From: a virus
Lineage: Duplodnaviria > Caudoviricetes
Virus record (IMG/VR): IMGVR_UViG_3300020463_000001
Coordinates: 32,001-96,000 of that record
DNA length: 64,000 nucleotides
Direction: 5' to 3' (one strand)
The notes below the pieces were generated by a model. That model searched no databases. It was not told the origin of the DNA and saw only the letters and a program-made list of their open reading frames with translations. Each line of letters starts with the position of its first letter. The stretch's first letter is position 1. The position numbers and the translations under genes are program-made. This document shows, one piece after another, positions 3,169-27,193 of this stretch.

Positions 3169-3406
3169 ATTTAATTTAGAACAAGACATACAACAATGCT
3201 GGTTTATTACAGAAGATATTGATTTGCTCATGGAGTATATTCTTGAAAATCCGAAGTATCCTATGTCTCCCCAAGTAGAAGATTACGTCGCGAATAAGTT
3301 GCTGGGAATCCGAGAGTTGTATGAAATGAGATTTGAAAGATTGTGGGATACATTCCTGCAGTGTTATAAACTAACTCCCTACGGAGAGGATGTTAATGAT
3401 AATTGA
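3104..3406 (+). CDS. hypothetical protein (DRFNLEQDIQQCW...LLGIRELYEMRFERLWDTF)
   Basis: Motif resembles a recurrent small protein of marine T4-like phages; start uncertain. Confidence 0.65.
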   Translation: MSYILRDGEIRTKKTSSPKKDRFNLEQDIQQCWFITEDIDLLMEYILENPKYPMSPQVEDYVANKLLGIRELYEMRFERLWDTFLQCYKLTPYGEDVNDN

Positions 3407-4523
3407 TGAGACGTTGAAGTATGACTTCGATGATGTTTTGATTAGGCCTAAAAGGTCTGCCCTTAAGTCCAGAGAAGATGTAGATCTTTTTAGACTTCAC
3501 ACATTTAGGAACTATGAGGTTCCCTCACAATACGCTCCTAACTATCCAGAGTTTCTTAAGATAGAAGATTTTCCTTGTTGTCTAGGTCGAGAACCAAATC
3601 AAGAATTCCAGTATAAGGGAGTTCCGATAATGGCTGCGAATATGGATGGAGTTGGAACTATGAAGATGGCATCGACTCTATCTCATTCTGGAATATTTAC
3701 TTGTCTCAAGAAAAATTATAGTGCAGAAGAATTAATAAATTTCTTTAATGAAGAAACTCACCTAACGGAATGTGTCGCAGTAACCATTGGAATGACTCTA
3801 GAAGATAAAGAGAAGTTGGAACGAGTATATTCTGAAACAAAAATAAAGTATGTCTGTATTGATGTAGCAAATGGATATACGGAAAGTTTCTGTGACTATG
3901 TAGAAGATATTCGAAATACGTTTCCACACTTAGTTATCATCGCAGGCAATGTTGCAACTGCAGACCAAACTGGAGAACTGATTCTCAGAGGAGCGGATAT
4001 CGTCAAGGTCGGTATTGGGCCAGGATCTGTATGTACAACTAGAATTAAAACTGGAGTCGGGTATCCCCAGCTCTCCGCAATAATAGAATGTGCGGATGCC
4101 GCACATGGTTTGGGTGGCCATATTATTGCAGATGGTGGATGCCGCACTCCAGCAGATATTGCAAAGGCATTTTGCGCTGGTGCAGATTTTGTTATGGTCG
4201 GAGGAATGTTATCTGGTCATAAACAAGGTTTAGAAGATGACGCAGAAATAACTGATGGTAATATCACATTCTACGGAATGAGCTCCAAGACTGCAAATGA
4301 AACTCACAACGGCGGTCTCAAAGACTATCGTAGCGCAGAAGGAAGAGAAGTATTGATAAAGTATAGGGGAAATGTAGAACCTACCTTACATGACATTCTG
4401 GGGGGTCTGAGATCTACCTGTAGTTATATCGGAGCAAAGACACTCAAGGATATGTCCAAGTGCTGCACGTTCATCCGTACTACTCGACAATATAATACGG
4501 TGTATGAGCAAAACACCATATAA
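3390..4523 (+). CDS. guaC: GMP reductase, E. coli GuaC type (start may be 3396)
   Basis: DVLIRPKRS, AANMD, IDVANGY, KVGIGPGSVCTTR, GYPQLSA, FYGMSS, YRSAEG, GGLRSTCSY motifs. Confidence 0.93.
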   Translation: MLMIIDETLKYDFDDVLIRPKRSALKSREDVDLFRLHTFRNYEVPSQYAPNYPEFLKIEDFPCCLGREPNQEFQYKGVPIMAANMDGVGTMKMASTLSHSGIFTCLKKNYSAEELINFFNEETHLTECVAVTIGMTLEDKEKLERVYSETKIKYVCIDVANGYTESFCDYVEDIRNTFPHLVIIAGNVATADQTGELILRGADIVKVGIGPGSVCTTRIKTGVGYPQLSAIIECADAAHGLGGHIIADGGCRTPADIAKAFCAGADFVMVGGMLSGHKQGLEDDAEITDGNITFYGMSSKTANETHNGGLKDYRSAEGREVLIKYRGNVEPTLHDILGGLRSTCSYIGAKTLKDMSKCCTFIRTTRQYNTVYEQNTI

Positions 4524-20000: not shown

Positions 20001-20085
20001 GGCGGGGTTCCCGAGCGGTCAAAGGGATCAGACTGTAAATCTGACGGCTATGCCTTCGAAGGTTCGAATCCTTCCCCCGCCACCA
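20001..20085 (+). tRNA. tRNA-Tyr (GTA)
   Basis: GGCGGGG/CCCCGCC acceptor stem, TCAGA-ctgtaaa-TCTGA, long variable arm, TTCGAAT, CCA. Confidence 0.96.
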
Positions 20086-23251: not shown

Positions 23252-23983
23252 CTATACGAAAAAATCGGTGATTCCTCGTAGTTTAAAGGTATTTGTCCAT
23301 CCACAATCAGGACATTTCACAACTGCATCAGTTACGCACTGAGGCATAGTCTCAAAAAAAGTATTTATCTTCTGAAACTGCATTTGCGACAAAGATTCTA
23401 GAAATTCAGAAACTTCTTCATCATTAGAATCCGCAATATCATAAACTTCATCGCCATCATAGATATATTCGATACAATTTTTTAACATTTTCATTGTATC
23501 TTCAAATGTATTCAGATTCTGAACACCCTTAAGGATTTTAAAATCTGGATACTTCATTATCACACCAATAGTATCTGTTAAATCAATTCTATTTGTATGA
23601 TCCTCATTATTTTCAATTTCAACATTGTCGAGATTGATATCAAATCTAACATCTTTCTCAGTAGTTGATCCGTCTTCGGAACCAGCCGGACAGTCATGTT
23701 TATAATTTAACTGTACGATGTTTCCTACAGACTTACTACGAATGTTGACAAACAAATACTCTATATCAAATGTCGCAAGACTTTCAATCTTTACGCCTTT
23801 GGTAATAATGCAGTTCGCAATAATTTGTTTTGCTGCATCTACTTGTTCTTCAACATCGTCTCCTTCGTTAGCCATCAATAGAATCTTTTCTTCCCTAACC
23901 AAAAAAGGTCTAAACTTGATTTTTTTCTTGGTTGACGGAATTGTAAGATTATAAGTTGGCGTATCTAACTTAGGTAGAGCCAT
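23252..23983 (-). CDS. 26: baseplate hub subunit gp26
   Basis: MALPKLDTPTY.LTIPSTKKKIKFRPFLVREEKILL, DIEYLFVNIRSKSVG, VIMKYP, C-terminal CPDC. Confidence 0.92.
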   Translation of the reverse strand: MALPKLDTPTYNLTIPSTKKKIKFRPFLVREEKILLMANEGDDVEEQVDAAKQIIANCIITKGVKIESLATFDIEYLFVNIRSKSVGNIVQLNYKHDCPAGSEDGSTTEKDVRFDINLDNVEIENNEDHTNRIDLTDTIGVIMKYPDFKILKGVQNLNTFEDTMKMLKNCIEYIYDGDEVYDIADSNDEEVSEFLESLSQMQFQKINTFFETMPQCVTDAVVKCPDCGWTNTFKLRGITDFFV

Positions 23984-24022: not shown

Positions 24023-24688
24023 TTAGTCTGACTTTCTCCACTTGCGATATGCCATTGTGACAGGTAAACTTGCAATTTCTTCTGATGCGTATGCGTAGGT
24101 TATCTGTCCAATAGAAATCGGGTATGCCTCTTCAAAGGTCACAGAATAATTTGAAAAGTGTTCTAGTCCTTTATCTTCTAAACTTCCAAGTGTTTGTTTA
24201 ACTTTATCTGTTGTAGACTGAGATTCATTTTGATTTGAAGTTCTATCATATGAGTAGAATGTACAGTCTTTGACGATATCATCGTAGTATGACACATATG
24301 CAGTTTTATAACTTATCGCCAAATCCATCCATGCACTGAAGAAATCTCTTTCTTTCAAATTTTTACTTAAATATACATTGAATGACAAATCTTCATATAT
24401 CATTCCGTATGCGGATTTTCTTGGTGGGCCATAATATTGAACTTCTTCTGTAGCGAGTTGTTTGCCAGGCAGTTCTAGATTATCAATCCTTAGAGTCAAG
24501 TTTTCTGTCATTCCATCTCTAAGAGTAGATGGAAGTCCATCTGGATACGGTATACTTAATGCATAAGTATTGGGTATTAATAAGTCATTAGATACTCTAG
24601 AAGTAAAATTGTCTATACTAAATTTTCCTCCTCTTTTGAGGATAGTACCTCCGTAAAGGTTACTACTTGTTGGTGAATTCCCTGCCAT
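24023..24688 (-). CDS. 54: tail tube initiator gp54-like
   Basis: LELPGK, FFSAWMD, FEEAYPISIG, VTMAYRKW (gp19/gp54 fold). Confidence 0.75.
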   Translation of the reverse strand: MAGNSPTSSNLYGGTILKRGGKFSIDNFTSRVSNDLLIPNTYALSIPYPDGLPSTLRDGMTENLTLRIDNLELPGKQLATEEVQYYGPPRKSAYGMIYEDLSFNVYLSKNLKERDFFSAWMDLAISYKTAYVSYYDDIVKDCTFYSYDRTSNQNESQSTTDKVKQTLGSLEDKGLEHFSNYSVTFEEAYPISIGQITYAYASEEIASLPVTMAYRKWRKSD

Positions 24689-24690
24689 TC

Positions 24691-25287
24691 TTATCCTCTC
24701 GCGGAATCAGACCAGACTTTACTCGCGCTGGCCTTTTTGAATCTTTGTACTGGAAGGAATATTGCAATATCCCATTCATTTGCGTCTATCGTCACAAAAC
24801 TACTTCTCATATTATTGTATAAGTATCTTTTAATGCATGGTTTAATTGTACTGAACTTACTTGCACCCTGTAAGACTCTGTATGATAAAGCAAGTCTAGT
24901 AGTGGAGTCGTAGTTTTTATTTGTAGCAATATTACTCAGACTATTCATGATCAACATTCTGTTTCTAGGAGATACATAATGCAAATTCATCCCCAGAAAT
25001 CCTCTAGGGAAGTAATCCACTGCGAATATCAACGGAAACTCATCGTAGTACGGCAATTTGTCCTTAAACTTCGGATCGTAATTATAGAAATACATTTTTC
25101 CTATCTGTGGAGTTGCTGCCTTTCTATCTGAGTCAGATAAAAGACTTCTCCTACCCGGCTGTCGGGACAATGCACTTGTTACTGCACTCTGTCTCACCTT
25201 TTTGCTAAACCACTCTCTAGCCGCCGATGAGTTCGGTTGTATACCCTTCTGGGCCAGTCGTTTGAGTAGTGGTCTAAAGTCTGCCAT
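24691..25287 (-). CDS. 2: DNA end protector protein gp2
   Basis: IGKMYFYNYDPKFKDKLPYYDEFPLI, FLGMNLHY, CIKRYL, W..AIFLP..RF. Confidence 0.93.
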   Translation of the reverse strand: MADFRPLLKRLAQKGIQPNSSAAREWFSKKVRQSAVTSALSRQPGRRSLLSDSDRKAATPQIGKMYFYNYDPKFKDKLPYYDEFPLIFAVDYFPRGFLGMNLHYVSPRNRMLIMNSLSNIATNKNYDSTTRLALSYRVLQGASKFSTIKPCIKRYLYNNMRSSFVTIDANEWDIAIFLPVQRFKKASASKVWSDSARG

Positions 25288-25300
25288 GTTCTATTTATGT

Positions 25301-26695
25301 TTATTTTCGATAAACTTTCACAGGAAGTTCAGTATAACCTCTGACAAATGATGAAAAAGTGCGTTTCTCTTCTCCTACAACCTCTATTCGATCAAATCTT
25401 TTCATAATTTCTTCCCAGAGAACCTTGAGTTGTAGTTCTGCGGTTCTGTTTCCCATACAACGATGGATTCCAAAACCAAATGATAAATGATTACGAGCAT
25501 TCTCTCTATCAATGATTAGATCTTCTCCATTGGGGAAAACTTCTTCGTCACGATTTCCGGAAAGATACCACATTAGTATCTGGTCATGTTTTTTGATTTC
25601 TTTGTCTCTGATCATGCAGTCATTGTTTGCGGTTCGTCTCATATATGCGAGAGGGGTTTGCCATCTAATAATTTCTGATACCATATTCGGTATCAATCCT
25701 AGATCTCCTTTTAGTTTTTCGTATTCTGACGGAAACAGGTTAAGTCCATGAACACCAGCAGTCATAGAATTTCTTGTAGTATCATTTCCTCCCACAATCA
25801 GTAGAATAAGATTACCTAGAAACTCCATTGGCTCCATATCTTTTGTGTGTTCTCCCTTGACCATCATAGAAACAAAGTCATTTGTGGGTTCTTTCTTTCT
25901 CATTTCCCAGATTTCGGTAAAATACTGAAGACATTCTACTAATTCGTCAATTCTTTGTTGTTCGGTATCGATAATTCCTGCGCCAGGCACTGCAGTCGCA
26001 ACATCAGACCATCGTGTTAACTTTCTGCGTTCTTCGAATGGAAAATCAAAGAGAGTTGCGAGCATTTGTGTAGTCAGTTCAATAGAAACTTTGTCTACCC
26101 AATTAAATGTCTCATCTTCGGGCAAAGAATCTAAAACTGCACCAGTCCTTTCTCTTATCATGGGTTCTAGTCCCATCATACTTCTCATAGAGACTACCGG
26201 AGCAACTGTTCGTCGTTGCAGATCATGTTTGGGCGGATCCATTGCGATAAACAAAGAGATATCTAACGAACCTTCTGGACGGGGACTTCCGACAGGATAC
26301 CCTATTGTTATCATTGGTTCAGAAGAAAACTCTTGGTGATTCATATCAACTTTTTTGATATCATCATATTTTGTCAATGACCAGAATCTTCCAGCAACTT
26401 CTGTCTCATTAAAGTGTATTGGATCTTCTTCTCTAAGTCTTTTAAACATTTCAAGACTTTTGTTTTCTTCAAAGAGTCTATTCCATACTGGGTTGAGTGT
26501 CTCTAGAGGAACATCGTATGCGGAAGGAATTTCACCAGTAAATTCATCTTGTTCTGATCCTGCTCTGGCAAATCCCGCAGCTGCAGCGGATTCTCTTTCT
26601 TCTAGTACCGCATAGTGTTCGCCATCATTGCCATTACTACCGATGACATCCATTCTTTTCTCATCTTCGTCTGTCCACATTGGTTCGTTGCTCAT
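25301..26695 (-). CDS. cytochrome P450, CYP153-like
   Basis: FIAMDPPKHD, VSIELTTQMLATLFDFP, LLIVGGNDTTRN, EIIRWQTPLAYMRR, SGNRDE, HLSFGFGIHRCMG; GGAGG SD. Confidence 0.95.
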   Translation of the reverse strand: MSNEPMWTDEDEKRMDVIGSNGNDGEHYAVLEERESAAAAGFARAGSEQDEFTGEIPSAYDVPLETLNPVWNRLFEENKSLEMFKRLREEDPIHFNETEVAGRFWSLTKYDDIKKVDMNHQEFSSEPMITIGYPVGSPRPEGSLDISLFIAMDPPKHDLQRRTVAPVVSMRSMMGLEPMIRERTGAVLDSLPEDETFNWVDKVSIELTTQMLATLFDFPFEERRKLTRWSDVATAVPGAGIIDTEQQRIDELVECLQYFTEIWEMRKKEPTNDFVSMMVKGEHTKDMEPMEFLGNLILLIVGGNDTTRNSMTAGVHGLNLFPSEYEKLKGDLGLIPNMVSEIIRWQTPLAYMRRTANNDCMIRDKEIKKHDQILMWYLSGNRDEEVFPNGEDLIIDRENARNHLSFGFGIHRCMGNRTAELQLKVLWEEIMKRFDRIEVVGEEKRTFSSFVRGYTELPVKVYRK

Positions 26696-26709
26696 AATGC
26701 CTCCATATT

Positions 26710-27150
26710 TTAACTATTTAGTTTGGGTAAAATATGTTTTTCGGTGATGATCTTAAAATCCCATCCCTTCATTTCGCAGTATTTCTCTGCGGCCTTCCAT
26801 TTTGCTTCATTGACACCCCAAGTCTTCATCTCATTGATATATCTTTTCTGATTTTTCTTTTTTCTGGGTGGTTTTGTTTCTCGATTTGGTTTGATTTCAA
26901 TCATACTAACTTTATCTTTCGTTTTTACTATAAAGTCTGGATAATATCTATGTATTTTATGATCTATGGGAGACAAATAGGGAATTACAATTTCTTCACT
27001 TGCCCATGAAAGAATGAGGGGATTTCTATCGCAATAGATCATAAATCTTCTCTCCCAACTGGAGCGATACACTATTTTCGATAGATCACCTATGTATTTT
27101 TTGGGATTCTCTGGAGTATATCTACCTTTGTAGGTAAATTTCCGCAACAT
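26710..27150 (-). CDS. 4: head completion nuclease gp4
   Basis: YKGRYTPENPKKY.GD...IVYRSSWE, WASEEI.IPY, HRYYPDF, IEIKP, NEAKW.AA. Confidence 0.95.
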   Translation of the reverse strand: MLRKFTYKGRYTPENPKKYIGDLSKIVYRSSWERRFMIYCDRNPLILSWASEEIVIPYLSPIDHKIHRYYPDFIVKTKDKVSMIEIKPNRETKPPRKKKNQKRYINEMKTWGVNEAKWKAAEKYCEMKGWDFKIITEKHILPKLNS

Positions 27151-27162
27151 TCAAAAACCTCA

Positions 27163-27193
27163 TATAAATAATAGGTGTAAATAATTATTTATA
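27163..27193. promoter_or_regulatory. divergent late promoters
   Basis: TATAAATA on + at 27163-70 and on - at 27186-93, between gp4 and gp48. Confidence 0.75.

Follow-up and report, generated by a model that had tools for sequence, protein, structure and literature searches.

A CYP153A-type cytochrome P450 gene between the head completion and DNA end protector genes of an uncultured marine T4-like myophage

The stretch of viral DNA analysed here, called the window throughout, comprises 64,000 nucleotides (nt) and corresponds to bases 32001-96000 of the IMG/VR record IMGVR_UViG_3300020463_000001, a genome of 200,733 bp with direct terminal repeats that is rated complete. On its minus strand the window carries a gene for a cytochrome P450 of the CYP153A type, located between the genes of a T4 gp4-type head completion protein and a T4 gp2-type DNA end protector. 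An earlier note, made from the letters of this DNA alone, had drawn attention to the gene, and its claims are taken up below with the results that bear on them. The open reading frame (25301-26695, minus strand) is uninterrupted by stops, starts with the ATG at 26695, ends with the stop codon at 25301-25303 and encodes 464 amino acids (aa); the gene and its catalytic motifs are the following.

25301..26695, minus strand: CYP153A-type cytochrome P450, 464 aa (P0001), from the Pfam PF00067 match, the matches to CYP153A structures in the PDB, a ratio of nonsynonymous to synonymous substitution rates (dN/dS) of 0.08 and its nesting in a cellular CYP153 clade
25775..25792, minus strand: I-helix oxygen-activation motif GGNDTT, residues 302-307, read in the translation and invariant in alignment A1
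25664..25675, minus strand: K-helix ExxR motif (EIIR), residues 341-344, read in the translation, with E341 and R344 invariant in alignment A1
25451..25480, minus strand: heme-thiolate loop FGFGIHRCMG, residues 406-415 with Cys413, read in translation and DNA and invariant in alignment A1

The three motifs that had been described as intact are thus all present in the translation, unchanged against the cellular relatives, and the protein shows the signatures by which the superfamily is recognised, namely the FxxGxHxCxG loop, the acid-alcohol pair of the I-helix and the ExxR of the K-helix, besides the stretch LFIAMDPP. The Pfam p450 family (PF00067) matched the open reading frame with an E value of 2.4e-20 and 73 bits, against a cut-off of 22.8 bits. 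When the phage P450 was searched against all solved structures, the 13 top chains were CYP153 enzymes, led by 6hqg, 3rwl (CYP153A7) and 7ant (E ~1e-143, 479 bits); the CYP153A structures scored 442-480 bits, CYP153D17 382 bits and 6hqw 348 bits, and the nearest family other than CYP153 was CYP125 with 201 bits. The nomenclature rule that we used puts the minimum identity to a formally named CYP153 at 40% for the family and at 55% for subfamily A, and the phage protein is 53-60% identical to unnamed alpha- and gammaproteobacterial homologues such as that of HTCC2143, in a comparison that holds no named CYP153. NCBIfam contains no CYP153 model, its best match, SolI, staying under the cut-off, and no PHROG family matches the protein; AlphaFold2, run on the 14 rows of alignment A1, gave a model of low quality, with a mean predicted local distance difference test score (pLDDT) of 51.5. 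The structure scores together with the trees described below place the gene inside CYP153, as had been proposed, and the reading of the window gene as an intact P450 of the CYP153A type can be considered confirmed at the level of its sequence.

The following surrounding genes and signals lie on the same strand.

26700..26704, minus strand: GGAGG ribosome-binding site, 4 nt ahead of the P450 ATG, read in the sequence
26710..27150, minus strand: T4 gp4-type head completion protein (PHROG 218 'head closure', E 4e-59; Pfam Tn7_TnsA-like_N)
24691..25287, minus strand: T4 gp2-type DNA end protector (PHROG 429, E 2e-54; 'DNA end protector' annotation on isolated-phage matches)
24023..24688, minus strand: tail-tube family gene, the next one downstream in the block (PHROG 45 'tail tube', E 1e-32)
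23252..23983, minus strand: gp26 baseplate hub subunit (Pfam T4_baseplate, E 1.5e-64; 46% identity to the best isolated phage)
27186..27193, minus strand: perfect T4 late-promoter consensus TATAAATA, upstream of gene 4, found by motif search
25292..25298, minus strand: late-promoter-like ATAAATA between the P450 gene and gene 2, found by motif search

The tail-tube family gene may be the counterpart of T4 gp3, as its place in the gene order suggests. Further along, a tape-measure-like gene follows gp26, and genes similar to gp48 and gp53 run divergently on the opposite strand, so that hallmark phage genes (gp4, gp2, gp26, gp48 and gp53) flank the P450 on both sides. The stop codon of gene 4 (TAA, 26712-26710) is separated by 14 nt, which hold the GGAGG, from the P450 ATG, and 13 nt lie between the P450 stop and the ATG of gene 2 at 25287; the ribosome-binding site of its own, the shared orientation and the two short gaps that had been claimed for the gene therefore all hold in the sequence, as does the late-promoter motif upstream. 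The GGAG core of the ribosome-binding site is retained in the phage copies that lack the additional hydroxylase gene described below. The ATAAATA occurs in the 22-nt gp4-gp2 spacer of a sister phage devoid of the P450 (L017), and every P450 carrier retains it behind the P450 gene. Between TATAAATA and gene 2 the minus strand showed no terminator-like site. A late co-transcription of the P450 with gene 4 is plausible from these motifs, because TATAAATA stands before gene 4 and ATAAATA before gene 2, with no terminator-like site in between.

The gene belongs to the phage genome, and its junctions recur in independent material. The order gp4-P450-gp2 was found in nine further contigs from other samples, eight of IMG/VR and one of ENA, whose P450 proteins are 90-96% identical to that of the window. 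In run X2, which comes from a different sample and a different study, contigs covering 24600-25534 and 25555-27055 bridge both junctions with 0 differences, and in run X3 both junctions are bridged by a diverged relative. An assembly chimera, which had been named as one of the outcomes that would overturn the reading, is excluded by these recurrent junctions and by the exact bridging in run X2. The GC content of the gene is 39.4% and that of its third codon positions (GC3) 29.5%, as in the surrounding phage genes, which agrees with the phage-like AT-rich codons noted before, whereas the cellular relatives have a GC3 of 48-66%. Neither a tblastn search with the P450 nor a megablast search with its 9.6-kb neighbourhood gave a match among the 50,697 phage records of INPHARED/GenBank, the collection that includes the isolated phages, and therefore no isolated relative was found there; the best isolated phages reach 38-46% identity for gp26 and gp2.

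A survey of gp4-gp2 intervals, which the earlier note had asked for, showed that the P450 is confined to the closest gp2 clade. A search with gp2 gave 80 viral loci, and the P450 was present in all eight whose gp2 is at least 91% identical to that of the window, while in the 71 other loci holding both genes, gene 4 adjoins gene 2, with a gap of 3-138 nt in 70 of the 71. The nearest sister without the P450 has a gp2 77% identical and a gp4-gp2 gap of 32 nt. The P450 is a clade-specific insertion at the junction of genes 4 and 2, because 71 related contigs are without the gene. The single exception in gap length (L068), a distant relative, has a 639-nt gp4-gp2 gap with a reverse-strand open reading frame of 199 aa (3375-3974, minus strand) whose HNH-type motif was judged by eye, and therefore this junction seems to accept other mobile inserts as well. 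Among 27 pairs of phage copies, with synonymous divergence (dS) up to 0.8, the median dN/dS of the P450 was 0.08, a value comparable with those of gp4 (0.08), gp2 (0.04) and gp26 (0.04). Judging from this value, and because its GC3 is phage-like (29.5% vs. about 48-66% in cells), the P450 is old in the phage, is kept under long-term purifying selection and appears to be functional for it. The gene can accordingly be described as an auxiliary metabolic gene on grounds read from the sequences: a bona fide phage genome, a cellular origin, absence from related phages, and purifying selection.

The cellular origin was traced in a protein database of 5.8 billion proteins, which was searched with both the P450 and the iron-sulfur subunit of succinate dehydrogenase (SdhB) that the phage also encodes. 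The ranked P450 matches began with a phage-type sequence (91% identity), followed by cellular proteins of 444 aa (77-79%) and then by many marine gammaproteobacterial proteins (71-75%). In a careful maximum-likelihood tree the phage clade received a support of 100/100, and its union with the cellular clade of P0003, P0004, P0009, P0010, P0011 and P0013 a support of 100/98; in a quick tree, the phage and its sister cellular clade fell inside a clade (98) that includes a metagenome-assembled genome (MAG) labelled OM182 MED-G155. The phylogeny that had been called for thus nests the phage clade among CYP153-type genes of Proteobacteria, as sister to an OM182-type clade. The cellular sister genes are chromosomal and share the order P450-DUF5916-Lin0512-methyltransferase (SMT)-(nucleosidase)-alcohol dehydrogenase, the OM182 MAG MED-G155 included. 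The nearest NCBI protein (P0004) is labelled 'Acidimicrobiaceae bacterium', and we rejected this label as that of the donor, since the near-identical P0009, from a single-cell assembly (L091), has a TonB-dependent receptor as its neighbour and is syntenic with OM182 MAGs; faulty binning seems to be behind the label.

Compared with the SdhB of these OM182-type genomes, that of the phage reaches 80-82% identity, which equals its best cellular match in that database, and for both P450 and SdhB the closest cellular relative is recorded on a contig of 2,766,274 bp. The capture of the P450 from an OM182-type marine gammaproteobacterium is well supported by these sequence comparisons. The OM182-type bacteria are also the probable host of the phage, because two independently acquired genes, those of the P450 and of SdhB, point to one lineage. 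An alkane- or lipid-using marine host, as suggested before, fits with an OM182-type donor that carries a chromosomal, syntenic CYP153.

The phage P450s differ from all their cellular homologues at the N-terminus, where a module of 25 aa follows the shared Met-Ser start.

26612..26686, minus strand: phage-specific N-terminal module, residues 4-28 (containing MWTDEDEKRMDVIGSNGNDGEHY), from the alignment with cellular homologues, its conservation and its recurrence
Other instances of the module: L176:398-450, L177:501-572, L175:401-478, P0125, P0126 and L186-L265

The insert (containing PMWTDEDEKRMDVIGSNGNDGEHY) is found in none of the cellular homologues, and it is conserved in eight of eight phage copies despite many synonymous changes. 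It is a portable element of about 22 aa with the pattern W.DE.EKRMD.IGQNGNDGEHY (W.DEDEKRMD.IG.NGNDGEHY for the conserved N-terminal module of the P450), which recurs in many unrelated phage proteins, among other places at the N-terminus of a ribonucleotide reductase alpha-like protein of a Vibrio phage and at the C-terminus of a 'nucleotide kinase' of a Pseudomonas phage. More than 120 viral contigs encode the peptide IGQNGNDGEHY in exact form; of the 80 contigs that were read, 13 have it at the N-terminus, 16 at the C-terminus and 51 internally, in open reading frames of 23-431 aa. Carriers that could be recognised are, among others, a 5'-3' exonuclease and a DUF3310 protein, and many more are unknown proteins. 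Pfam and PHROGs hold no family for the module, a full-text literature search for the motif GQNGNDG returned no paper, searching the ESM Atlas with the N-terminal part brought up no usable match, and the phage's own genome has no paralogue of it. We put forward only tentatively, and consider rather doubtful, the idea that the module might be a docking or targeting peptide that phages graft onto very different enzymes. The P450 would then not float freely like a host-type enzyme but would be recruited to a partner or compartment set by the phage, for which an electron donor, an enzyme complex and the virion are possibilities.

As to the electron supply, the lack of a redox partner that had been stated for the window holds, and extending the ferredoxin search to the complete 200.7-kb genome was also negative: profile searches of the whole phage genome with Fer2, Fer4_15, Flavodoxin_1, Pyr_redox_2 and NAD_binding_1 gave no match. 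The canonical three-component operon of ferredoxin, P450 and ferredoxin reductase was found neither beside the P450 nor anywhere in the phage genome, and the cellular sister P450 genes are likewise without adjacent partner genes. The simplest reading is that the phage P450 would use host electron carriers, because the phage genome is without ferredoxin, flavodoxin or reductase. Outside the window, at G000:C1 18908-20530 (L178:2909-4531), the same genome carries adjacent genes for a SufT-like Fe-S assembly protein (PF01883), SdhB and an alternative oxidase (PF01786, E 1e-70). The phage SdhB is complete (NCBIfam PRK05950, 356 bits against a cut-off of 228 bits), and its cellular relatives are located in ordinary sdhCDAB operons. 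About 0.9 kb downstream of this block lies a gene for a Dam-type N6-adenine DNA methyltransferase (PF02086, E 4e-39; L178:5405-6238, G000:C1:21404-22237).

In our preferred reading, to which we give a probability of about 0.72, the gene is a host-derived metabolic gene that encodes a class I CYP153A-family P450, captured by an uncultured marine T4-like myophage lineage from an OM182-type gammaproteobacterium and working with host partners on aliphatic chains. The capture would have been followed by insertion at the junction of genes 4 and 2, where the P450, provided with its own ribosome-binding site, is most likely expressed on a late transcript starting from TATAAATA upstream of gene 4. During infection, the enzyme would receive heme and electrons from the host, the latter by way of ferredoxin and ferredoxin reductase, and would hydroxylate the terminal methyl group of aliphatic chains, be they alkanes, fatty acids or lipid acyl chains, and this hydroxylation may feed or reshape the lipid or hydrocarbon metabolism of the host during phage production. 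The sequences show the integrity of the gene, its family placement, its phage context, its cellular origin, the long-term purifying selection and the absence of canonical partners encoded by the phage, whereas we infer the late expression, the use of host partners, the substrate, the physiological benefit and the identity of the host.

Several points weigh against this reading. The host assignment leans on the origin of two genes instead of a direct link. The sister genes in cells are uncharacterised and lie outside alkane-degradation operons; among their neighbours are a TonB-dependent receptor, an imelysin-like protein, DUF4856 and DUF5916. Two metatranscriptome libraries contain short contigs about 95% identical to the P450 gene, with DNA carry-over possible, and these hint only weakly at expression, while a late timing would leave less time for a metabolic benefit than early expression. 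The stem branch leading to the phage P450 clade is long (0.37 in the quick tree), and 16 residues fixed in all phage copies differ at sites that are at least 90% conserved among the 28 nearest cellular sequences. These substitutions, for example G128M, R249I and LAH278-280MVK, are clustered at residues 119-139, which, going by P450s in general, would be the B-C region, and at residues 272-280, with further pairs at 246/249 and 369/370 (window positions ~25584-26341). The phage P450 may have shifted in substrate specificity or partner, because the stem is long and the 16 fixed substitutions are clustered.

One alternative, a role of the P450 in remodelling lipids or the cell envelope instead of in catabolism, we consider unlikely on balance. 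The P450 would then hydroxylate acyl chains of host membrane lipids or ornithine-type lipids late in infection, in some phages jointly with a membrane-bound di-iron hydroxylase, and might in this way influence membrane properties, lysis or superinfection. The hydroxylase in question is encoded in a sub-lineage (contigs of L006/L007 and L180), where an additional gene of 323 aa stands between gene 4 and the P450.

L007:5028-5999 (plus strand), L180:2665-3633 and L181:3-473: additional membrane di-iron FA_hydroxylase gene (Pfam PF04116, E 9e-24)

Its presence upstream of the P450, its stop 1 nt ahead of the P450 start, its best NCBIfam match, the ornithine lipid hydroxylase OlsE, and one contig of an RNA library that spans the junction of the two genes speak for this reading, as do the placing of the P450 among late genes and the location of its cellular sisters away from alkane operons. 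Nevertheless, characterised CYP153A enzymes use free alkanes, alcohols and fatty acids, the OlsE match of the additional gene is far under the cut-off (94 vs. 475 bits), and the phage of the window itself is without this second hydroxylase gene. A co-transfer of the phage FA_hydroxylase with the P450 was considered separately and rejected, since the FA_hydroxylase encoded about 6 kb away from the P450 genes in cells shares no more than 26-30% identity with the phage enzyme. Much less probable still, to the point that we give it hardly any weight, is a replacement of host ferredoxin by the phage SdhB-type iron-sulfur protein, matured with SufT-like help, as the electron donor of the P450. The phage genome does encode the SufT-like protein, the complete SdhB and the alternative oxidase; SdhB, however, belongs to complex II and is not known to donate electrons to P450s, its gene lies about 37 kb from that of the P450, its cellular relatives are the ordinary operon members described above, and the phage genome encodes no reductase. 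Finally, an assembly chimera, cellular contamination or a decaying, functionless passenger gene is already refuted. Nothing in its favour was found; the P450 has no tblastn match in the isolated-phage records and no PHROG. It is contradicted by the same junctions in nine more contigs, which come from different samples, and in those of an independent run, by the phage-like base composition, by a dN/dS of 0.08 over dS values up to 0.8, and by the intact catalytic motifs.

The host-derived CYP153A-type P450 that we favour can be compared with several known systems. The CYP153A structures (3RWL, which is CYP153A7, 6HQG, 7ANT, 5FYF and 8B2P) match it over the P450 core, residues ~50-462, with E values of ~1e-133 to 1e-143, and share with it LFIAMDPP, GGNDTTRN, ExxR and FGFGIHRCMGNR, and a class I type is implied; unlike them, the phage P450 is phage-encoded, carries the 25-aa N-terminal module and the 16 fixed substitutions, has no partner gene in its genome and is known from sequence alone. 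The OM182-type chromosomal CYP153 (the P0004/P0009/P0011 clade, with MED-G155 and L099) is its sister clade at 77-79% identity and is likewise partnerless, but has a GC3 of 0.48-0.66 vs. 0.295, no N-terminal module and a conserved chromosomal neighbourhood. Giant viruses, a herpesvirus and the Mycobacterium phage Adler are known to carry P450s, and, in the account of Lamb et al. 2019 given in PMC9405906, none of these P450s has viral redox partners. Like the phage P450, these are virus-encoded enzymes for which host partners are assumed, and they differ, as far as that account goes, in CYP family and host group, the present gene being that of a T4-like marine myophage, fixed in a globally sampled clade and having a clear donor lineage. 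In addition, a preprint on the cold-seep virome (10.64898/2025.12.10.692286) counts cyp153 and alkB as putative viral metabolic genes, and viral hydrocarbon-degradation genes have been termed 'vHYDEG' (Ru et al. 2023, as cited in PMC13343209). Like the present gene, these are alkane hydroxylase genes carried by viruses for which a role as auxiliary metabolic genes has been proposed; in those accounts they appear as catalogue entries, in contrast to the complete genome, exact insertion site, P450-less sister, selection analysis, donor lineage and N-terminal module available here. Both the phage metabolic gene and the viral P450 are thus known kinds, whereas this member, its setting, its donor and its N-terminal module are undescribed in the literature that was searched.

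Bacterial alkane consumption begins with CYP153 and AlkB enzymes. A large part of the alkane in the open ocean is of cyanobacterial origin (the short-term hydrocarbon cycle), and in the photic-ocean transcriptomes of one study cyp153 is reported to be expressed by Pseudomonadales families only (PMC13488336). Given the captured and retained P450, phages may take part in marine hydrocarbon or lipid oxidation, and, if the preferred reading is true, part of the alkane oxidation capacity, or of a related lipid hydroxylation, would come under viral control during infection by a globally sampled phage clade. The analysis also provides a candidate phage-host pair for the uncultured OM182-type bacteria and, for P450 research, a bacteriophage P450 with a traceable donor, lineage-specific substitutions and a phage-specific N-terminal module. 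Besides the genes discussed, the window contains three phage tRNA genes, Gly-TCC at 1489-1563, Thr-TGT at 1980-2055 and Tyr-GTA at 20001-20085.

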